64,000 nt of DNA from a virus (lineage: Duplodnaviria > Caudoviricetes). The first letter of the stretch is position 1, and every line of letters begins with the position of its first letter. The position numbers were made by a program, and so were the translations under genes. Positions 4,548 to 45,512 of this stretch are shown here, in pieces. Under the pieces are notes generated by a model. The model had not been told where the DNA came from. It saw only the letters and a program-made list of their open reading frames with translations, and ran no database searches. The stretch covers positions 64,001-128,000 of IMG/VR virus record IMGVR_UViG_3300021387_003827, one strand, 5' to 3'.

Positions 4548-5270
4548 ATGGGACTAATAGATGGACTAAAGGAAGCCGTACTTAAAGAAATAGCGGACAA
4601 TCTCTTACCTTCGGTGGATATAAAAGATAAGTTTAGGGATTGGGATTCACTTTCCCCAGAACTTAAAGATGAATTTCTGGAGGACGAAGAGACAATAAAC
4701 TCAAACATAGAAGATCAAAAGGAACAGGTTATAAAAGGAATGGAACCGAAATGGAATAACCTGTCGTCCTCTTTAAATCTTCTTGTAAATTCTTCAACAC
4801 AATTTGTAACAAGGCTGGCAATGGTTCCTACGGCAATTATATCAACAACTCCCGTAGGTCCTGGTGTAGCGGCTGGAGCAATACCACAGGCAATAGCACA
4901 ATTAAAAAGTGATGGAGAGACTGTTGGAAAAGCTTATGATGATACTAAAAACTCTCTCTCTGAAATTCTTGGAGGTTATAGTGGGGATAGTACGATTATA
5001 ACCGACCTTAAGACCACCATAAGTACTCTCCTTGGAACTGCAGCAATAGCCTTAGCGGTTGTAGGAATTTCGAAGGATGGAGTTGAAGCACAGGAGCCAG
5101 AAGTACAAAGTCCTGTTGCTCTTCCTGAATACAAGGCCGGCGATTGTAAAAATTACCGGGAGATAGAACAGGAAGATCCGGTAGAATGTGAAAATTGTGA
5201 AAACTATAATGCTTTAAATCCTTCAGGGACGCGGGCATGTAATAATTGTACCCGCTATGAAAAAAGATAG
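4548..5270 (+). CDS. hypothetical virion-module protein with Cys-rich C-terminus
   Basis: 240-aa ORF ending C..Y/CENC/CNNC. Confidence 0.6.
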   Translation: MGLIDGLKEAVLKEIADNLLPSVDIKDKFRDWDSLSPELKDEFLEDEETINSNIEDQKEQVIKGMEPKWNNLSSSLNLLVNSSTQFVTRLAMVPTAIISTTPVGPGVAAGAIPQAIAQLKSDGETVGKAYDDTKNSLSEILGGYSGDSTIITDLKTTISTLLGTAAIALAVVGISKDGVEAQEPEVQSPVALPEYKAGDCKNYREIEQEDPVECENCENYNALNPSGTRACNNCTRYEKR

Positions 5271-5800
5271 TGGGATGGCTTATGGAGAGTGAAATTTCCA
5301 TAGGTCTCAAGTTGAAAACGCAGAGACTTGGGAGACGAAATCAAGATGAAACCCGAAGAAAAGCTGAGCGTTAGCGAAGTCTTTTCGAGTGGTTGAATAT
5401 TGATGAGTATCCTTAGGTAAAACAAAATCGAACCCCACCTCCATTTCATTCCGGTGGGCTCCGTTAAAGAAAAGAAATTGTGTGAAAGATATATAAATTA
5501 TTTTAAGAACAGCTGGCCCGAACCACAACTAACCCCGGAACGGAACGTTAGTGGAGTGGAGGGGTGTATGTTGGGGTGAAGGGGCCAGGTGTAATAAAAA
5601 ATAGTGACTTTACTTATATAAAGGTAATTTTTGTGGGTGTCAAAAAAAATTGTGACTTTTTTGGTTATTTTTGGACATTTTCGCAGAAAATGGACAAAAA
5701 TGTTAGAAAAACACCCAATTTTGCAGATAAATTTAATAGTATTCCTTATATATAGTAGAGGATGCTTCGCCTCCCAAGTGTGAAGCATCCTGAGATAAAA
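5271..5800. other. long structured non-coding region (multiple hairpins, A/T tracts); candidate replication origin or element end
   Basis: Hairpins at 5340-5404, 5434-5458, 5513-5588, 5668-5700 and 5759-5791, with GTTA/GNA loops and GA/GGA internal loops. No credible ORF. Confidence 0.6.
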
Positions 5801-5823
5801 TATTATTAAATTTATTATAATGT

Positions 5824-7842
5824 ATGATTAAATCTACAATTAATGTACCTAGAGGAATTAGATACATTAGCGAATGGCAAAATTTTAATATACCAGAAAA
5901 AATTTGCATCTTAAACAAAACTCTTACTGGATGTGGTTTCACCGAGTGGGTAATAACTAGTAATGAAAATGTAGTTTTATGTTCTCCCCGTAAAATCCTC
6001 CTAGAAAACAAAGAAGAACAACATCCTGAAGTATTCTATTTTAAGAATGAATTAGATTATGACATAAGAGTTGACAAGGATCTCACAAAAGAGTACTATA
6101 AGAAATACGATCAAATTCCTACTCCTCCAGCCGATGCACAAGAAAGGTTGGAAAATATGAAACAAGGCCTGAAGAATTATTGTTATTCTAGGATGATGAA
6201 GGGCCTACCAATAAAGATCCTTGTTACCTACGACTCCTTCAGAATTGTAAAGGAAGTGCTTAAGACTTCGTTACCAGATGTATATTTTAACATCTATATC
6301 GACGAGTTCCAGAGTATTTTCACGGACTCACGCTTTAAATCATCTACGGAAATTGTCTTTTTATCTCATCTTCAAGGCCTGGATAAAGTATGTTTTGTAT
6401 CCGCCACACCAATGATAGATAAATACCTGGAGATGTTGGATGAATTTAAAGATCTCCCATACTTTGAACTTGACTGGGGAGCGGAGGAACAATCTAGAAT
6501 CATAAAGCCGAATCTTGAGATTAAGGCCATCAATGGATCAATAACTTCCTATGTAAAAGCTATTACGGATAAATATTTGTCAGGAAATTTTGACAAGGCA
6601 ACATATAGAGATGAATCCGGAAGGATAGTTGAAATAGAGTCCAAAGAAGCTGTTATCTATGTAAATTCGGTAAAGAATATTTGTGATATAATCCGAAAAT
6701 GTGGGTTAAATATAAATAATACTAACGTTCTCTGTGCTAGAACCCCTGAAAATGAAAAGGATATAAAGAAAGCATTTGGACTTAAGGGGAAAGGCGTATC
6801 AGGAATAGGAAAAGTGCCGCTGAGGGGAGAACCTAGAAAAATGTTTACCCTTTGTACTAGGACCGTCTATCTTGGAGCTGACTTTTATTCCCCATGTGCC
6901 CAGAGTTTCATATTCTCTGATGCTAATATAGACTGTCTTTCGGTTGATATTACTACAGACCTTCCTCAGATTTTGGGACGACAAAGATTAGAAAGTAATC
7001 CTTGGAAAAATTCTGCCAGGTTATATTATAAGACTTTGGCAACAGATAAAGCTATAACTCAAGATGACTTCAACAATCACATTCAAAAGAAAGTTAGTGA
7101 TACAAATGATCTTCTGTCCCTCTATAATAGATCTGTAGGTAGTGAAAAATCTACTTTAGCTGAAAGATGTTTACACCTGGTTAAGAGTATGAATTATAGG
7201 TTAGATTATTTGGCCGTCAATGAAAGGGCTGGAAATGTTTTGGTTCCTGTCTTTAATAACCTTGTCCTTGTTTCAGAGCTTAGAACTTTCGAAATACAAC
7301 AGATAGAATATAAGGATAGATTCTCGGTTTTCAGTACAATAGTGAATAATGATCTTCTTGTTTTTGAAGAGAAGATAGACTCATTTGTAACTAAGTTTAA
7401 TTCTCTCATCCTATTTACTGATAAGATGAAGTATGTTTGTGATACATGTGAAGTATTAGGCGAAGATGAGGCTGACAGGTTTATTAATTCTATTCCATTG
7501 ATATATAAGAATTATTATCTAACTTTAGGACCTGAACGAATAAAAACATTCTCGTATCGAAAGGCATATCTTGAGGCTGAATATAGCAAACAATTTCAGC
7601 AGCAGAATACTATAACTGATCTTGATACTTTGATCTATTCTAGAATATCAATTGGAGATAGATATAGCAACCAAGAGCTTAAAGAATTGCTTAGGTCTTT
7701 ATATGAAATTGCTTCTTATCCTGCCAATCCAAAAGCTAGCGATATAGAAAAATGGTTTGAGATAAGGCCTTGTCAAATTACTAATAAAACGACAGGAAAG
7801 AAGGACCATGGCTTTGAAATTATAAAAAAGAAAGACAAATGA
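5824..7842 (+). CDS. SF2 helicase-like protein with altered Walker A and C-terminal putative DNA-binding domain
   Basis: Motifs in order: TGCGFT (I, K replaced by F), SPRK (Ia), IDEFQ (II), SATP (III), IYVNS (IV), TRTVYLGADF (V), QILGRQR (VI). Confidence 0.75.
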   Translation: MIKSTINVPRGIRYISEWQNFNIPEKICILNKTLTGCGFTEWVITSNENVVLCSPRKILLENKEEQHPEVFYFKNELDYDIRVDKDLTKEYYKKYDQIPTPPADAQERLENMKQGLKNYCYSRMMKGLPIKILVTYDSFRIVKEVLKTSLPDVYFNIYIDEFQSIFTDSRFKSSTEIVFLSHLQGLDKVCFVSATPMIDKYLEMLDEFKDLPYFELDWGAEEQSRIIKPNLEIKAINGSITSYVKAITDKYLSGNFDKATYRDESGRIVEIESKEAVIYVNSVKNICDIIRKCGLNINNTNVLCARTPENEKDIKKAFGLKGKGVSGIGKVPLRGEPRKMFTLCTRTVYLGADFYSPCAQSFIFSDANIDCLSVDITTDLPQILGRQRLESNPWKNSARLYYKTLATDKAITQDDFNNHIQKKVSDTNDLLSLYNRSVGSEKSTLAERCLHLVKSMNYRLDYLAVNERAGNVLVPVFNNLVLVSELRTFEIQQIEYKDRFSVFSTIVNNDLLVFEEKIDSFVTKFNSLILFTDKMKYVCDTCEVLGEDEADRFINSIPLIYKNYYLTLGPERIKTFSYRKAYLEAEYSKQFQQQNTITDLDTLIYSRISIGDRYSNQELKELLRSLYEIASYPANPKASDIEKWFEIRPCQITNKTTGKKDHGFEIIKKKDK

Positions 7843-36640: not shown

Positions 36641-37443
36641 AATTTCTAAATATAGAAGGTGTTCGCCTGTTATGGTCTAGGGTTAAAGAATTATCCGCTT
36701 CAGAAAATACAGAGATATCCTGGGTTGATGATGCTCACTCTGGCCTTAAAATAACTCTTGTAACAGCAGAGGATGGACATAAGGTATATAATTTTGACAT
36801 ATCCGACGTTCAATCTATTAGTGAGTTCCAAAGTATCATAGCAAATTATATGACTTCCGCCGAGATAGAGAGCGAACTAGGAGAACTAGATTCAAAGATA
36901 GACTCTTCTGTTGGCGGAGTAGAAACTAAAGTTAACACCTTAATTGCCGATGATACTGGGAAAAGTGCTAGGGTTATTGCCGCCGAAGAATTATCTCGCC
37001 TATTAATTCCTGAAGGTGCTAAGGAGTCTCTGGATACGCTTCAAGAAATAGCAGATTGGATTCAGCAACACCCAGATGATGCTTCTGCAATGAATCAGGC
37101 CATTGAAAATCTCAAGACTTTTGTTGGAATTATTCCTCCTGGGGCATCGGCAACTACGGTAACTGAATATGCAGCAGAACTAGTTAGTGCCGAGAGATCA
37201 AGAGCAGAAGGAGTTGAGTCAGGGCATGGTACGAGAATAGGGGACCTAGAGACAAAAGTCGGATCTTCTTCTGTATCAGATCAAATCACCTCGGCTATCG
37301 GAGAATTAGATTGGGATGCAAAATCTTCTTCTGACAACCACTTCCTCACTGATATTAAGGTGGAAAATGGAAAGATGATTTCAAAATCTGATGTTGAAAT
37401 AAGACCGATATCAGAAGAATATTTAAATAGTGTTTTAGTATGA
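36637..37443 (+). CDS. tail fibre shaft-like coiled-coil protein
   Basis: GA.ESLDTLQEIADWI motif common in phage fibre proteins. Confidence 0.6.
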   Translation: MKFLNIEGVRLLWSRVKELSASENTEISWVDDAHSGLKITLVTAEDGHKVYNFDISDVQSISEFQSIIANYMTSAEIESELGELDSKIDSSVGGVETKVNTLIADDTGKSARVIAAEELSRLLIPEGAKESLDTLQEIADWIQQHPDDASAMNQAIENLKTFVGIIPPGASATTVTEYAAELVSAERSRAEGVESGHGTRIGDLETKVGSSSVSDQITSAIGELDWDAKSSSDNHFLTDIKVENGKMISKSDVEIRPISEEYLNSVLV

Positions 37444-38735
37444 TAGAGTATTTAAGTAAAGAAGGTATAAGTATTCTTTGGTCTAAGATTAAAAATAAGT
37501 TCTTAGATAAAGATGCTAAATATACTAAAGCTGAAATTGATAATATCATTGGAGAGATAGATTTCTTTTACATTGACCAAAACCTAAATACGCCGGGTAA
37601 AAGAATTATAACCAACACTTCCAGCCCGGTTCTTACAAAACTTAGACTAAGATCGCATAGATACTCTGGACATTACAAAAATTCGGTGATGTATGTATGT
37701 CAGCTTCTTGATTCTAATACATCATTGTTCTTTGACGGAACTACAAGCTCTTCCAACTATATAAATGGTAGACTTGACTGTGATGTGTGGATGAGACTTC
37801 CAGAATTTTGGTGGAAAGTATCTGAGATCTCTGTGGATAAGTGGATTCTTGGTATATCAACCTCGCCAATAGAAGGTTGGAATCATTGGGATGGAAATCA
37901 TCTTATTGGTGTTTATGAGGCATATTCTTCAACGCGGAATACGAGTGATACCGGATTTAAAACTGGATATAATTCTATCTCTATCGATGGAGAACTTCAT
38001 TCTTGGTCTGGAGTTGTATCTTCTGGTGCTATCTGTCAGGATTCATTTAAAATCCAGGCTAGAAATAGGGGAATTGGATTTTCTCTTGTAACTTGGGAAG
38101 AGCATTGTATCATGGCATCTTTGTTCTTCATGTGGTATGGTACAACTAATTCACAGGAAAAGTGTGGCTCAGGAACAGATGAATATAGAAAATCCTGTGG
38201 AAGAACAAATAGTTTAGGAATGACAGACACTGATTCAGAGACAGAAGGAAGTATAAATTTCTGGGGTCTAGAGAATTGGTGGGGAAATAAAGCTGAATAT
38301 ATAGATAACATATATTCATACCTGGAGGATAATACTCTCAAATCTGAAATCTGGGACATAGGAGGTACAAAATCTAGAATTTTGGAATTATCATCCTCTC
38401 AACCAATCTCCTCTGGATATAAATGCATCCTTGGAGAAAATCTAGACTATCTACCATCTGAAAATTCCGGATATTCTGATTCTCGTGGATATTGTGATGA
38501 AATAAAAGTATCTGGAGAAGAAAAACAGATACACATGATTGGAACCAGACAAGAATCAAGACCAGGGTATATCGGGAAAAGGTCAGGAAGGAATATAGAC
38601 ATTTCCGGAGGTATCTTATATTTAGACATGAGTTATCTTCAAGGATCTTCCTCTGACTATACCGGATCTCGACTCTCTTTCCATGGTAATATAGAAGAGC
38701 TCTCTGTGGCTGATTATATATCAATAGTACAGTAA
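37440..38735 (+). CDS. tail fibre/receptor-binding protein with C-type lectin (FGE/Mtd-like) fold
   Basis: IGVYEA, WGLENWWGNKAEYID and terminal GSRLSF motifs. Confidence 0.6.
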   Translation: MIEYLSKEGISILWSKIKNKFLDKDAKYTKAEIDNIIGEIDFFYIDQNLNTPGKRIITNTSSPVLTKLRLRSHRYSGHYKNSVMYVCQLLDSNTSLFFDGTTSSSNYINGRLDCDVWMRLPEFWWKVSEISVDKWILGISTSPIEGWNHWDGNHLIGVYEAYSSTRNTSDTGFKTGYNSISIDGELHSWSGVVSSGAICQDSFKIQARNRGIGFSLVTWEEHCIMASLFFMWYGTTNSQEKCGSGTDEYRKSCGRTNSLGMTDTDSETEGSINFWGLENWWGNKAEYIDNIYSYLEDNTLKSEIWDIGGTKSRILELSSSQPISSGYKCILGENLDYLPSENSGYSDSRGYCDEIKVSGEEKQIHMIGTRQESRPGYIGKRSGRNIDISGGILYLDMSYLQGSSSDYTGSRLSFHGNIEELSVADYISIVQ

Positions 38736-39643: not shown

Positions 39644-40942
39644 ATGGAGAAAATATATAATACAAAATCAGAATGGAATTCAGAAACAAAAACAGAACCA
39701 ACTATAGGATTAATAAAACAAACAGGAGAAGTTTTATATTCTGGCGGGATTAACTTTTGTACTTCCAGCCCGAAAATAGGAGATGCTTTATATCTTGATT
39801 CTGATGGTAAGCCTAAGGCAATTACTTTAGAATCATATACTCCAGCATCAATTCCTTCGGGCTGGACCCCCGTTGGATCTGTATATAATGTCACCGGGAA
39901 AGAGATTTGGGTTGTTGCTAAAGATGGTGCCTCAAAAAAATGGGCAGCTATACGACTTTGGGAAGTAAGTGGATATAATCTCGATGAGGCAAGTCATACA
40001 GCTACTTTCACCTTCTGTAATTCTTCGTCTGTTCGAACTGAATATCCATTCACATATTCAGCTACAACCAAGGAAGAGTTTTGTAACCAGCTTGATACGT
40101 GGCTTAGGGAAAATAATCCAGAGAATTATAAACCGAGGGCATATATAAAAGATGGTTATGTGTATCTTGCAGCTGACAATTATGCTTGGTGGCAACAGGA
40201 CTCATATACAACCTGTAGTGGATTAACTCTCACCCACTGGAGTACGCCTATTTCTAGAATTCCGGCAATATCACGTACACCACAAAATAATACTTTCAAG
40301 AATGTATATTGTATAGTTAATAAAGAAAGAATTAAACAGTGGGGAGGAAGAACGCCGTCCTCCAATGTAAGTCTCTCTGCAGTAGATACTCCAGTATCTA
40401 AAAACGCATTTAAAACTTCCTCATACTGTGATCTTATTCGGAACACATATGGAGACTATGATACATATCTAGATGCTGTTACGGCTCAACACCCGGCATC
40501 TAATGGATCTGTCTCATGGAGGAATGTCGGTCATGCAAAAACTCAGGAGTGGTGTTCCTTTACATACATAACTTCTTCAGGGAGCGAGGCACTTCTTTTC
40601 ACGGCGGCTAATTATGCAAATGATTATGGAATCCCTGACAGTCAATACTTTGCACCAGGAAATTGGTGGGTACCGGACGTAGACGAGATAATGTATATGA
40701 TGAAAAACATTACATATGGCTTATCTGGAGTCTCTATGGCTGATGCGGATCCGGTGAATAGGTGCCTGTATTTTATGGGAGGCACCGGAATAAGTTGCGC
40801 CGCTAGCAGATGGAGTTCTGTTCGTTACTACAGTTACAATTGCTGGTATTGTAACGGTAATGGTTACTTGAACGGCGTCAGCTTCAGTAGCTCGTTAATG
40901 GTGTCCCCGGTTTCCCGCCTTCTGAAAAGCGACCTCGATTAG
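39644..40942 (+). CDS. DGR target protein 1 (putative receptor-binding protein, C-terminal CLec-type variable domain)
   Basis: 3' end carries VR1; paralog of 41375-42664. Confidence 0.85.
   Translation: MEKIYNTKSEWNSETKTEPTIGLIKQTGEVLYSGGINFCTSSPKIGDALYLDSDGKPKAITLESYTPASIPSGWTPVGSVYNVTGKEIWVVAKDGASKKWAAIRLWEVSGYNLDEASHTATFTFCNSSSVRTEYPFTYSATTKEEFCNQLDTWLRENNPENYKPRAYIKDGYVYLAADNYAWWQQDSYTTCSGLTLTHWSTPISRIPAISRTPQNNTFKNVYCIVNKERIKQWGGRTPSSNVSLSAVDTPVSKNAFKTSSYCDLIRNTYGDYDTYLDAVTAQHPASNGSVSWRNVGHAKTQEWCSFTYITSSGSEALLFTAANYANDYGIPDSQYFAPGNWWVPDVDEIMYMMKNITYGLSGVSMADADPVNRCLYFMGGTGISCAASRWSSVRYYSYNCWYCNGNGYLNGVSFSSSLMVSPVSRLLKSDLD
40799..40917 (+). repeat. DGR variable repeat VR1
   Basis: 119 bp colinear with TR 43514-43632; 14 mismatches, all at TR adenines. 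Confidence 0.95.
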
Positions 40943-41030
40943 AGGGAGCGTCTCTGATTTAGTCGAGCGTTAGCGAAGACTTCTGAGGAGCGAATTGTAT
41001 GAGCGACGATAGTTAAATAAATATAAAATT

Positions 41031-41378
41031 ATGAATATAAAAAAAGTTCTAAGTGGGATAAAAACCTACATAGATAAAGTAATATCTAAACTATCCACCA
41101 CAGATTTAGTTGTCCCTACTGCCTATAAAGATTTAGATGAAAGGATAAAATCATTAGAAAATATACTTCTCTCTGGATCTTCGCGTGCAGGCGACTTAAA
41201 AGCAGATTCTTTGGATGGAAATGAAATAACTAGATTTGGTAAGAGTATAGTTCTTTATGGTTCTGGTGCCCCCACAGTAATTCCTGACTTTATCGGTCAG
41301 TTTTATGTGAACATGTCAGGACCAGCTCTATACTACGCAACTGGAACGGACTCAACCTCTAATTGGAAACAAGCATGA
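41031..41378 (+). CDS. small tail-fibre-associated protein
   Basis: 115 aa; GSGAPT.IPDFIGQFYVN...LYYATG....WK motif. Confidence 0.6.
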   Translation: MNIKKVLSGIKTYIDKVISKLSTTDLVVPTAYKDLDERIKSLENILLSGSSRAGDLKADSLDGNEITRFGKSIVLYGSGAPTVIPDFIGQFYVNMSGPALYYATGTDSTSNWKQA

Positions 41379-42664
41379 TAGAAAAATATGAAAATGAGGC
41401 AGCCTGGAATTCCGCAGAGAAGACAGAAAATACATTAGGCCTTATTCAAAATACTGGAGAAATAAAAACAAAAGGATTTAATATAATAACTAAAAGTCCT
41501 AAAGTTGGTGATGCTATATATCTAGACCCGAATAACGATATTAGGGCAATAGAACTTGACTCTCTTACACCATCACTTCTCTCTGACTGGACTTCTGTTG
41601 GCTCTGTTTATCATACGGAAGGAGATAATATATGGATAGTTGCGAAAAATGGTGGGTCTTATAAATGGGCAGCTGTTGCTATATGGCGAGTGACTGGATA
41701 TACTTTAGATGGAACTTCTAGGACTGGAGTATGGGAATCCTATCAGGCGGCATCAACAACCACAGACAATACTTTTACATATTCAGCAACAACAAAAGAA
41801 GACTTTGCATCTCAACTTCATACCTTTATCTCTGCCATAGACTCGAGTATATATAACTACAGTGCTTATGTAAATACCGATGGTGAGGTTGTAATTCAGG
41901 CCAATATATATAATTCATATTGGCAGAATTATCCTTCATTTACATCTGGCCTATCAAGTACTATTTTTTATAATAACCCTAACCCCACAATAACATGGAG
42001 TCCAACTATGGATGGATTTCATATTATATATTCCACCTGTAATAAAAAAAGAATTAAACAGTGGGGAGGAAGAAATGCGCCGACTTCAGAGGTTCCTTGT
42101 CCGAATAATACACCAATATCAAAGGCCAGTTTCGAAGCTAATTCTAATTATGTATCTAGGTATGGAGATTATGAAACCTACTTAGACCAAAACCAATCTA
42201 GATGTCCTTCTGGTTGTGGGGCAGTATCACATAGAGATAAAGGAAAAGAGTATACAAATGCTCTTATCGGAAAAACCTATATAGATACCTCTGGGACGAC
42301 AAGGCCATTTTATTCGGCGGCAGAATATGCTGTTGGATATGGATTTTCGGGGAATACAAAACTATCGGCCGGGAAATGGTGGGTACCCGATCTTGAAGAA
42401 ATAGTTTATATGATGAGAGACACTACTTATGGTCTTTCTGGGGTTTCTGCTGCAAATGCCGACCCTGTGAATAGATGTTTAAACCTCATGGGTGGATCTC
42501 TTATTTCAGCGACCGCTTACAGATGGAGTTCTGTTCGTTGCGACAGTTACCATTGCTGGAGTTATGACAGTATTGGTTACTTGTACATCGACAACTTCTA
42601 TAACTCGTTTATGGTGTCCCCGGTTTCCCGCCTTTTGAAAAGCGAATTGTATGAGCGACGATAG
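41375..42664 (+). CDS. DGR target protein 2 (putative receptor-binding protein)
   Basis: ATG at 41375 is ATGA-coupled. 3' end carries VR2. Paralog of target 1. Confidence 0.85.
   Translation: MIEKYENEAAWNSAEKTENTLGLIQNTGEIKTKGFNIITKSPKVGDAIYLDPNNDIRAIELDSLTPSLLSDWTSVGSVYHTEGDNIWIVAKNGGSYKWAAVAIWRVTGYTLDGTSRTGVWESYQAASTTTDNTFTYSATTKEDFASQLHTFISAIDSSIYNYSAYVNTDGEVVIQANIYNSYWQNYPSFTSGLSSTIFYNNPNPTITWSPTMDGFHIIYSTCNKKRIKQWGGRNAPTSEVPCPNNTPISKASFEANSNYVSRYGDYETYLDQNQSRCPSGCGAVSHRDKGKEYTNALIGKTYIDTSGTTRPFYSAAEYAVGYGFSGNTKLSAGKWWVPDLEEIVYMMRDTTYGLSGVSAANADPVNRCLNLMGGSLISATAYRWSSVRCDSYHCWSYDSIGYLYIDNFYNSFMVSPVSRLLKSELYERR
42509..42630 (+). repeat. DGR variable repeat VR2
   Basis: 122 bp colinear with TR 43511-43632; 14 mismatches, all at TR adenines. 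Confidence 0.95.
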
Positions 42665-42689
42665 TCCTGCGCAGTTGTACGCGCAGGAC
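42664..42689 (+). promoter_or_regulatory. GC-rich hairpin downstream of VR2 (DGR target-recognition stem-loop candidate)
   Basis: GTCCTGCGC-agttgtac-GCGCAGGAC, a perfect 9-bp stem. Confidence 0.7.
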
Positions 42690-42731: not shown

Positions 42732-43397
42732 ATGAACAAGAATAACAGTCCACTATCTTCTAAAGTGGCGGGATTTAGAAAAAGTATTAAGAAAAGAAGC
42801 AGAACCACTAGATTACCAAAACCAAAGACAGGGGTAGACCTTGTTGTGGAAATGAAAGCAATGCATAAATTATTACGTGGCTTAATATCTAAGAATTTAA
42901 TTACTTATGATAGAGAGCACCTACTAAAAGATATGATCGAATATTGTCTTAATATTATTTTCAGATTAGAACAATGGAGAACAGTAAAAGCTAAAGATGT
43001 TAAAGAAAGATTTAGAGTGTGCGAAATTTCCTATAATGAGTATGTAAAATTAAAATACTCACTTAGGTTAATTGTAGAAGACCCAGACCTTCATTTAAGA
43101 GGCCAGAAAAACCAAATAATTGCAGAAGTCTTAAATATTATATCAAGAGCTGATGAAGGTTTTAAGAAATGGTATACATACTCTTATGAAACATATTATA
43201 AAGCTTTTAGTGTCCCGTTTGGATTTAGTGATGTTTCGCCTATATCTAATCCAACAGTAAATAGCCAGACTGGTTCTAATATTAATCCCTTTTTATGTCG
43301 AAGTGAATCAAATGCTATAGCAGGGAAATCCTTCGACTATAATCAATCTGGCATAGTAAACGGTGGAGATGGAGAATCCACCGAGGATATAGACTAA
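42732..43397 (+). CDS. avd: DGR accessory protein, Avd-like four-helix bundle with C-terminal extension
   Basis: Located between VR2 and TR; basic and helical; LKYSLRLI...EGFKKW ending resembles Avd. Confidence 0.6.
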   Translation: MNKNNSPLSSKVAGFRKSIKKRSRTTRLPKPKTGVDLVVEMKAMHKLLRGLISKNLITYDREHLLKDMIEYCLNIIFRLEQWRTVKAKDVKERFRVCEISYNEYVKLKYSLRLIVEDPDLHLRGQKNQIIAEVLNIISRADEGFKKWYTYSYETYYKAFSVPFGFSDVSPISNPTVNSQTGSNINPFLCRSESNAIAGKSFDYNQSGIVNGGDGESTEDID

Positions 43398-43510
43398 GTT
43401 CTATATTCGACATTGAAACAAATCCTTATTAAATAATAATGGGAATCATAGGTAGCAACAACACTGATTTTACATTAAGTTGACCCTACCAACATCAAAT
43501 TTGATTGGGA

Positions 43511-43632
43511 ACGACCGCTAACAGATGGAGTTCTGTTCGTTACAACAGTAACAATTGCTGGAATTATAACAGTAATGGTTACTTGAACAACAACAACTTC
43601 AATAACTCGTTAATGGTGTCCCCGGTTTCCCG
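43511..43632 (+). ncRNA. DGR template repeat (TR)
   Basis: 38 adenines and 13 AAY codons; matches both VRs except at A positions; lies between the avd-like and RT-remnant genes. Confidence 0.95.
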
Positions 43633-43645
43633 ACATTATTATATT

Positions 43646-43957
43646 ATGGATATTATAAGTCTCCTTGAGGCCTACAAGATAGCTAGAAAATCTAATATAG
43701 CTAAAGCATTTGTTTCCATAGATAACTTAAACAAAATACCAAATAAAGAAGATAGAGTAATTGATTTTCTCCAAACTGTTAATTCTTATCTTGGTATGCT
43801 TAGGAATCGGAATAGTTATGGTGCACTCTTAGAACTACTACGATATGTAGACCCTGAATGGTGGTTATACTTTACTATAGCAATAGATAAGAATACTAAG
43901 AAAATTAAGAAGGTTGTCTTGAAGGATCAATATAAAAAGAAAAGAATTATAGTATGA
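43646..43957 (+). pseudogene. internally deleted DGR reverse transcriptase (N-terminal helix fused in frame to thumb/C-terminus; 103 aa)
   Basis: Starts LLEAYKIARK (DGR-RT N-terminus) and continues into VNSYLGMLRNRNSY...PEWWLY (thumb). No YxDD or other core motifs. Sits where the RT is expected, 13 bp after TR. Confidence 0.75.
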
Positions 43958-44160
43958 AAAGCGCAGAAACCAGAATTCATGAGGCCCAAGAATACCTTAA
44001 TGCAACTGATTATAAAGTAATCAAGTGGGCAGAGGGTGTAGAAGAGCCAGATGAAGAAATAAAAAGAAAACGTCAGAAAGCCAGGGACACTATAAATGAG
44101 TGTCTGAATGAAATCAAGTCTAGGCCGGTGGATCCTGATGAATTTCTTAGAGAGGTGTAA
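43954..44160 (+). CDS. small phage protein (often found next to tail fibres)
   Basis: L.ATDYKVIK.AEG...KRQ.ARD.IN motif; ATGA-coupled. Confidence 0.6.
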   Translation: MKSAETRIHEAQEYLNATDYKVIKWAEGVEEPDEEIKRKRQKARDTINECLNEIKSRPVDPDEFLREV

Positions 44161-44176
44161 AAACCTCTCTTCTTTT
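44149..44176 (+). terminator. intrinsic terminator ending the virion/DGR operon
   Basis: AGAGAGGT-gtaaaa-ACCTCTCT followed by TCTTTT. Confidence 0.6.
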
Positions 44177-44225
44177 CTTCCCACCCCCAGACTCTTATAA
44201 TTGAAACTATAAAATAATACAAAAT

Positions 44226-45512
44226 ATGCCAAAGAAAATTACATGGATTAAAAACGGATCAACTTTTACTAGAGCAGAAGGAGAAGTATCTGCTCTATCT
44301 AAGTTACCAAAAGCAATTTATACAATAAACTTCAATCCGATGGCGGGTTGGTCTATTGAACATTTTGCAGATAAGTTTGAATTTGGTTATAAGATTTACG
44401 GTCTTCAGGAGGAATTCATTAAGTACATTATTAATACCTGGGAGAATACTACAGGAAATCTTGGTATACTCCTTAATGGAATCCGTGGAACTGGTAAAAC
44501 TGTAACAGCAAAGATACTCTGTAATACTATTCCTGATCTTCCCGTTATTTTAATTAAGAATATGGGAAATTATAATCAGGGTATGATAGAGTATATCGGC
44601 GCATTTAATTTTGACTGTATTCTCCTGATAGACGAGTTTGAGAAAGAATTTAGTAAGGAAGACTCCACTATTCTTCAGCTAATGGATGGTGTTTACACGA
44701 GTGGTCATAGAAAAATATGCCTTCTCACGACTAACACTTTATCTGTGAATGAGAATCTCCTGGATCGTCCTACGCGAGTGAGATATGTAAAGAAGTTTGG
44801 AAATATTGATCTGAAATCCGCGACAGAGTACCTTGAGGATAATCTTAATGATAAATCTCTGATTAATGAGATTATATCCTACACAGATACCCTGAAGATC
44901 TCAACCATCGATATTCTGAAGATGATTGTGGAGGAGATCAATATTCATGGTATAGATGAATTTAGAAAATCAAAGAATTTCCTTAATATCTCTACAAACG
45001 ACTACTCTTATAGGACTATATATTGTTCAATTGAAGGTGGAGAAGGAATTAAGAAAGTACAAACCTACTGTAATGAGAAAGGCTGGGCACTGAAAGACTT
45101 CTTCAAAGCCACACTAATGACGAGGAAAAATCCAATGTATAGTCCATATATCAAAGACGAGGACAACGTAACAAAGGCTGAGAAGGAGAAACTAGAAAAA
45201 TATCAAGAATGGTGTGCTCTTAGAGCAGAACTACAGAGAATGTGTATTATTAGCCCAGGATATAACACCATAGAAACTGAAAGAAAAATCAATAACTATA
45301 AAGTTGGTGATATTTTCATTCAACGCATAGATGATTATGATCCTGATGAGTCTTATGTTGAGAAAATTATATATCTCGAAAAAGATTTTATTATATCTCA
45401 GCAAGAGTATAAGGATGGTAGAGTTTATCTGAATGGATACATTATTGAATCCTATTCTCAGAGCAGTATTTATGGAACCGGCGGCCCTGGAGCTATAATT
45501 AACGTTTTATAA
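44226..45512 (+). CDS. AAA+ ATPase
   Basis: Walker A GIRGTGKT, Walker B LLIDEFEK, sensor TTN and arginine finger DRPTR. Confidence 0.85.
   Translation: MPKKITWIKNGSTFTRAEGEVSALSKLPKAIYTINFNPMAGWSIEHFADKFEFGYKIYGLQEEFIKYIINTWENTTGNLGILLNGIRGTGKTVTAKILCNTIPDLPVILIKNMGNYNQGMIEYIGAFNFDCILLIDEFEKEFSKEDSTILQLMDGVYTSGHRKICLLTTNTLSVNENLLDRPTRVRYVKKFGNIDLKSATEYLEDNLNDKSLINEIISYTDTLKISTIDILKMIVEEINIHGIDEFRKSKNFLNISTNDYSYRTIYCSIEGGEGIKKVQTYCNEKGWALKDFFKATLMTRKNPMYSPYIKDEDNVTKAEKEKLEKYQEWCALRAELQRMCIISPGYNTIETERKINNYKVGDIFIQRIDDYDPDESYVEKIIYLEKDFIISQQEYKDGRVYLNGYIIESYSQSSIYGTGGPGAIINVL

Follow-up and report, generated by a model that had tools for sequence, protein, structure and literature searches.

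An in-frame deletion of the reverse transcriptase core in the diversity-generating retroelement of a large ruminant-gut phage: a probable case of recent inactivation

The DGR cassette and its repeats

The window analysed in this work, the whole 64,000-nt stretch of phage DNA introduced above, carries on its plus strand the cassette of a diversity-generating retroelement (DGR) belonging to a large ruminant-gut phage. The components of the cassette are arranged in the order target gene 1, a gene for a 115-aa protein, target gene 2, a gene for a 221-aa protein, the template repeat (TR), an ORF of 103 aa and a gene for a 68-aa protein (Table 1). The two variable repeats, VR1 and VR2, are contained within the last 50 codons of their respective target genes.

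Table 1. Positions of the cassette features in the window and, in the last four lines, of reverse transcriptase (RT) remnants on other phage contigs
Feature	Position	Strand	Description
DGR target gene 1	39644..40942	+	432 aa; VR1 at C-terminus; ORF call
VR1	40800..40917	+	118 nt aligned to TR
DGR target gene 2	41375..42664	+	429 aa from the gene callers' ATG; VR2 at C-terminus
VR2	42513..42630	+	118 nt aligned to TR
GC-rich hairpin	42664..42689	+	9-bp arms, 8-nt loop, 34 nt 3' of VR2
Gene for 221-aa protein	42732..43397	+	between target gene 2 and TR, where Avd sits
TR, intact	43515..43632	+	118 nt, 36 A
RT remnant	43646..43957	+	103 aa, ATG start, TGA stop, 13 nt 3' of TR
Deletion junction	43695..43697	+	868 nt of the relatives replaced by single T at 43696
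Gene for 68-aa protein	43954..44160	+	ATG overlaps stop codon of the RT remnant (ATGA)
P0136	L077:4837-5403		Avd N-terminus fused in frame to RT C-terminus
P0138	L076:1299-1937		Avd N-terminus fused in frame to RT C-terminus
P0144	L079:2027-2614		Avd N-terminus fused in frame to RT C-terminus
P0150	L080:1462-2061, also L081		Avd N-terminus fused in frame to RT C-terminus

The TR differs from VR1 at 13 positions and from VR2 likewise at 13, and all 26 mismatches fall on adenines of the TR with none elsewhere, exactly as the preliminary description of this DNA had it when reporting zero non-adenine mismatches in both VRs. The probability of obtaining 26 of 26 at adenines by chance is about (36/118)^26, or roughly 4e-14. 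Such confinement of TR/VR differences to adenines is the hallmark of DGRs; it is present here, and chance is ruled out as its source.

A further line of evidence comes from the comparison of the TR with that of related phages (described below), from which it differs only at position 43624, occupied by G in the window, by C in L003 and L065-L072, and by T in L002, whose TR has one further differing site. This non-adenine marker is G in the window's TR and at the matching positions of VR1 (40909) and VR2 (42622), and C in both the TR and the VRs of L003 and L065; in every genome with known VRs, these match the base of their own TR. A lineage-specific base common to the TR and its own VRs shows transfer from TR to VR in this group of phages.

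Both target proteins are related to each other (47% identity). The product of target gene 1 is probably a tail-fibre or receptor-binding protein: the gene is surrounded by tail-like genes, among them a neighbour at 37440-38735 with matches to phrog_5302 and phrog_14959. Profile scans of the protein itself returned zero Pfam or PHROG matches, and its structure model, with a pLDDT of 45, was too poor for a fold search or for a judgement on a C-type lectin-like fold. As regards target gene 2, its start depends on the prediction method, TTG at 41363 in the ORF list and ATG at 41375 according to gene callers. At the far end of the cassette, the 68-aa protein weakly resembles tail fibre assembly proteins (phrog_4912, E 2e-5), and its gene occupies the same position in the relatives, following the full-length RT.

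The 221-aa protein is encoded where an accessory Avd protein would be expected by analogy with known cassettes, and matched no Pfam (including bAvd) or PHROG family. Its single-sequence AF2 model (pLDDT 59) has four long helices at residues 34-158 and a disordered tail; a Foldseek search with this model gave no significant match, Bordetella Avd (4dwl_C) being ranked 24th with E 0.43. The protein is accordingly described here as a predicted helical bundle and an Avd candidate by position only.

The GC-rich hairpin downstream of VR2 may be a counterpart of the target-site hairpin of the Bordetella DGR; a similar hairpin was looked for in the region 3' of VR1 and was not found there. It should also be mentioned that in one related contig (L067:1-2725) the gene at the Avd position comes immediately after target gene 1 and its VR, the 115-aa gene and target gene 2 being absent. 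This gap reflects either a loss between the 34-nt repeats situated after both VRs (40980-41013 and 42632-42665 in the window) or an assembly collapse.

The reverse transcriptase remnant and its full-length counterparts

Taken alone, the 103-aa ORF matched no Pfam or PHROG family, and it could therefore be identified only through comparison with relatives. The decisive sequence was a 2.3-kb contig from ENA, L002, which is 95-97% identical to positions 42847-44238 of the window and in which the two halves of the ORF are separated by 867 additional bases that encode an RVT_1 domain. A search with the RT core of L002 led to a cluster of 392-aa RTs, and a full RT was located at the same site in contigs 95-97% identical to the window, namely L002 (where it is frameshifted), L003 and L065-L072.

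The preliminary description had read the ORF as the beginning of a DGR RT followed by the thumb and C-terminus, and had proposed an alignment to RTs in which a split match would support that reading. This alignment was run against the 392-aa RT P0122 with BLASTP and gave a split match of 16 + 87 residues, whereby ORF residues 1-16 correspond to RT residues 1-16 with 100% identity and ORF residues 17-103 to RT residues 306-392 with 97% identity (E 7e-57). The remnant is thus composed of RT residues 1-16, a junction codon AAT and RT residues 307-392, i.e. thumb and C-terminus. In the intact RT the RVT_1 domain spans residues 62-295, and the loss of residues 17-306 leaves nothing of the fingers, the palm or the catalytic aspartates (RFVDD). 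A cassette RT with an RVT_1 core is present in the relatives (L003, L065-L072) and absent from the window, where the single chain uniting N-terminal extension, fingers, palm and thumb is reduced to the 16 N-terminal and the last 86 residues. The earlier statement that the catalytic core is missing, with start, frame and stop intact, was hence confirmed.

Two comparisons connect these sequences with characterised or catalogued DGR enzymes. In a tblastn search of phage records, residues 25-78 of the ORF matched the C-terminus of a 473-aa DGR RT in MT835523.1, which is more distant than those of the relatives. Furthermore, the intact RT of the relatives matched the solved Bordetella DGR RT (8ub7) with E 2e-15; the alignment pairs its N-terminal LLEAYKIARKSK with LLDAYRKTSHGK of that enzyme (bRT).

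At the breakpoints (slashes) the relatives read ...AAATCTAA/AGCGAG...(868 nt)...AGAACC/ATAGC, and the window reads ...AAATCTAA-T-ATAGC. The net loss amounts to 867 nt, or 289 codons, and is in frame, the junction codon AAT (Asn) being formed by the first two bases of Lys17 and the one T. No repeat that could explain assembly collapse or slippage was found at the breakpoints, which share at most 2 nt. We also considered microhomology as the source of the deletion but discarded it, as the nearest ATCTAAA repeats lie 857 nt apart and would not yield the junction seen. Three window-specific changes were counted in the remnant, the junction base and two synonymous substitutions, which are too few for a test of selection.

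RT-intact relatives were encountered in many ruminant-gut samples from at least 10 studies, and eight contigs that come from different ENA samples share the RT allele P0122 without a single difference in 1179 nt. In three runs of other studies (cattle 2019, sheep 2023 and one of 2025), contigs exit the window at 43695 into AGCGAGAACCGAAGG... and re-enter it at 43697 from ...CTAAATAATAGAACC, these two sequences being the outer ends of the RT core. The deleted form, on the other side, was found with identical sequence in the IMG/VR record, in a Logan contig of SRR873601, probably the source run, in a 3.2-kb JGI contig and in contigs of 317-319 kb. The Logan contig (37,032 nt, depth 25) spans the junction and both VRs with zero differences and no loose end, and sampled words of the stretch were complete in one run only.

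Two contig collections were queried as well. The junction string had no match in metagenome_contigs or viral_contigs, from which the records of the window itself may be missing; viral_contigs searched with the RT core, the protein at the Avd position and an RNAP-like protein contained no close relatives, and a search for related loci in metagenome_contigs returned only RTs at 48% identity or less. Throughout, the evidence on the junction and the VRs consists of assembled contigs, in which a full-length allele at low frequency or slight variation in the VRs of the source sample could go unseen, and the assemblies bearing the deleted form may all derive from the same reads.

With a full-length RT common among relatives and the deletion occurring in one sample lineage, the deletion is private and derived. 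It is real and, among the data searched, confined to that lineage. The question raised in the preliminary description, whether related phages have a full-length RT or a conserved mini form, was answered by these relatives: they have the full-length RT at the same site and no mini form.

As a separate observation, the RT of L002 is split at L002:1585-1625 into ORFs of 280 aa and 96 aa by one missing A in a run of A, so that it reads YKI* where other relatives read YKNIGCTV. The depth of this contig is 2.6x, and the frameshift may be a sequence error or a second, independent inactivation.

Activity of the cassette and origin of the deletion

Relatives with an identical RT gene were found to possess at least four different VR2 sequences, which differ only at sites of TR adenines. 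Five of the eight contigs of these relatives end in or beside a VR, and in three other runs VR2 is covered by no contig, all of them restarting at 42641. Contig breaks at the VRs of relatives are the usual sign of VR variation within a sample, to which low depth (2-9x) may contribute. The RT-intact relatives thus diversify actively. The deleted genome was assembled straight through both VRs in every assembly; an unbroken source contig across the two VRs is compatible with an absence of diversification and is no proof of it.

The timing of the event can be approached through the substitutions specific to the window, of which there are 20 in 1314 nt, and through the 246 non-adenine sites in the TR and the two VRs, at which zero mismatches were counted. 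From these figures, the last homing occurred within approximately the last 80% of the window-specific branch, and the 'pristine' look of the TR and VRs dates the inactivation only loosely.

We consider it likely, with a probability of roughly 0.8, that the cassette is a DGR that died recently and whose two receptor variants are frozen, a state brought about by one 867-nt in-frame deletion in the RT gene. In this scenario, the single deletion inside the RT gene would have inactivated the element by removing together RT residues 17-306 and the RNA from about 64 nt after the TR. Without polymerase no cDNA would be made from the TR, and VR1 and VR2 would therefore be fixed at the state of their last homing. 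The 103-aa ORF would be a leftover, in which the RT start codon was kept and which reads to the original stop overlapping the next gene; the VRs would no longer be changing, and the remnant would have no function of its own. That a recent deletion froze two receptor variants was one of two possibilities given in the preliminary description, and it is supported by the full RT in the relatives, by the restriction of the deletion to one lineage and by the assembly through both VRs.

Loss of the RT might also have been selected, as the 'off-switch after adaptation' of the preliminary description would imply; it would then be a heritable off-switch that followed the emergence of a well-fitting pair of receptor variants and prevented their overwriting. 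The deleted genome was abundant enough in its sample to be assembled at 20-25x, and other phage contigs harbour independent remnants in which only the 3' end of the RT is left, one of them in two samples, both of which would suit such a switch. However, the deletion was seen in one sample lineage, as opposed to RT-intact relatives in at least 10 studies, the remnant and its flanks have similar numbers of lineage-specific changes, and nothing separates selection from drift or hitch-hiking. We therefore regard a selected switch as unlikely.

The other remnants were revealed by querying 1.8 billion representative proteins with the remnant from the window, which yielded four further cases, P0136, P0138, P0144 and P0150. 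All are rare, being present on one or two contigs each, and are located on unrelated phage contigs. An overlap between the RT 3' end and the next gene exists for no fewer than three of them (P0136, P0138 and P0150), and P0136 and P0138, the two compared in this respect, lie directly 3' of homologues of the target genes; a TR was looked for on their contigs, L077 and L076, and was not found. The fusions resemble the window in belonging to the same RT family, in having lost the core and in keeping the RT 3' end in frame. They differ in that their deletions begin inside avd and the TR is also gone, whereas the window has an intact TR, an intact gene at the Avd position and a deletion restricted to the RT gene.

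Deletions that take away the RT core but spare the 3' end consequently occur repeatedly. Since a protein search finds in-frame fusions only, no bias towards in-frame deletions can be claimed, and as a random deletion preserves the frame with a chance of one in three, the frame requires no explanation. The overlap of the remnant's stop codon with the start of the 68-aa gene may be the reason why an in-frame deletion was tolerated. A more far-reaching idea would see in-frame loss of the RT core as a recurrent, selected lock of DGRs, with the 3' end kept translated for the sake of the overlapping gene and the thumb leftover possibly hampering the DGRs of co-infecting relatives; we hold this to be very unlikely.

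To appreciate whether the cassette could still be served by an RT from elsewhere, the extent of the phage genome has to be taken into account. The IMG/VR record comprises 182,986 nt, of which the window is 64001-128000, and its 'direct terminal repeat' measures 88 nt. The ENA contig ERZ12302816 NODE_16, of 317,399 nt and with identical sequence, runs upstream past the first base of the record into DNA that the record lacks; the last gene of the record is situated 182 kb further along this contig, with 181.5 kb between the last and first bases of the record. This layout implies a genome of about 365 kb, about half of which is represented by the record, in agreement with the CheckV completeness of 49% and with a 355-kb scaffold of a relative. 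Within the 183-kb record, or about half of the ~365-kb genome, no RVT_1 match was obtained, and tblastn with a DGR RT found the remnant only.

The RNA downstream of the TR is relevant to the same question. In the Bordetella DGR, RNA of the TR alone is not copied, and 140 nt after the TR, which contain the priming adenosine and RT-binding elements, are required in cis; moreover, Avd is contacted by the N-terminal extension of the RT (bioRxiv 10.1101/2023.10.23.563531). The intact relatives studied here have a perfect 14-bp hairpin 71-104 nt after the TR, within RT codons 20-31 (L003:6060-6091), which is removed by the deletion in the window. Unlike in BPP-1, the RT starts 13 nt after the TR, so that a spacer-like RNA, if there is one, would share sequence with the RT coding region. 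Strong hairpins are frequent within the first 50 codons of distant RTs of the family (48% identity or less), although their positions vary, and hairpins in the 5' part of these RT genes may represent spacer-like RNA elements overlapping the coding sequence. A scan of the intact cassette against Rfam produced chance-level matches only.

With these data, it appears highly improbable that the cassette is non-autonomous and still active, an RT being supplied in trans by the host, by a co-infecting relative or by the part of the phage genome beyond the record, while the 103-aa protein acts on the Avd-RT complex as adaptor or inhibitor. The TR, both VRs and the gene at the Avd position are intact, the start, frame and stop of the remnant are preserved, the roughly 181 kb of genome outside the record could hold another RT, and RT-intact related phages inhabit the same habitat. 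Nevertheless, no other RT was detected in the 183 kb searched by either method, and the source contig is unbroken through both VRs. By analogy with Bordetella, the loss of the RNA from about 63-64 nt after the TR, together with the 14-bp hairpin, may deprive the TR transcript of a segment needed in cis, and only 16 residues are left of the N-terminal part that would contact Avd. The mini form was present in no relative, the only other member of its cluster being the C-terminal ORF of the frameshifted RT of L002. The second possibility of the preliminary description, a DGR using an RT in trans, gained no support from the RT search and would, if the Bordetella requirement holds here, be at odds with the loss of the RNA after the TR; its suggestion of an adaptor or inhibitor role fared no better, given the absence of the mini form from relatives and the 16 N-terminal residues remaining.

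That the deletion might be an assembly artefact or a minor variant picked by the assembler is hardly credible, for although all deleted copies may stem from one data set and contigs drop rare variants, the identical junction occurs in the IMG/VR record, the Logan contig, a SPAdes-style ENA contig of 317 kb and the JGI contig, the depth is 20-25x, contigs of the source run lack RT-core ends, and the junction offers no collapsible repeat.

Relation to known DGR systems

Among experimentally studied systems, the DGR of Bordetella phage BPP-1 (8ub7) has the same gene order of target, accessory gene, TR and RT, and the same adenine-specific mutagenesis. It differs from the present cassette in that RT identity between the two is low, the accessory protein here is a 221-aa one without detectable similarity to Avd, and there are two targets.

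Closer parallels are provided by the DiGReF survey (Schillinger et al. 2012, PMC3521204), in which cassettes were described where the RT is disabled and the TR/VR differences are still adenine-only, and which were judged to be very recent inactivations. The DiGReF cases had been caused by transposon insertions, nonsense mutations and frameshifts (PMC3521204), whereas here we are dealing with a clean in-frame deletion of 289 codons, which leaves a mini-ORF of N- and C-terminal parts, and with near-identical RT-intact genomes at hand. As a recently inactivated DGR, the case is of a kind known since 2012 and constitutes no new type of system.

In crAss-like phages, too, DGR cassettes and fragmentary cassettes are reported (PMC12386605 and the work cited there), and these are likewise aimed at tail-fibre genes of gut phages. 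In comparison with such fragments, the cassette in the window is complete except for the RT core.

The accepted view of DGR function is unchanged by this case. Its significance lies in a natural on/off pair: nearly identical phages of the same kind of habitat, of which some have a functional DGR RT and others lack one. In combination with raw reads or time series, such a pair could give the turnover rate of receptor variants when the element is on, and it could tell whether inactivation is neutral or advantageous.

Finally, in-frame stops were noticed in RT genes of distant members of the family, TGA in place of TGG in L008 (RT region 5001-6065) and TAG in place of CAG in L051; these could be due to stop-codon recoding or could mark broken genes.
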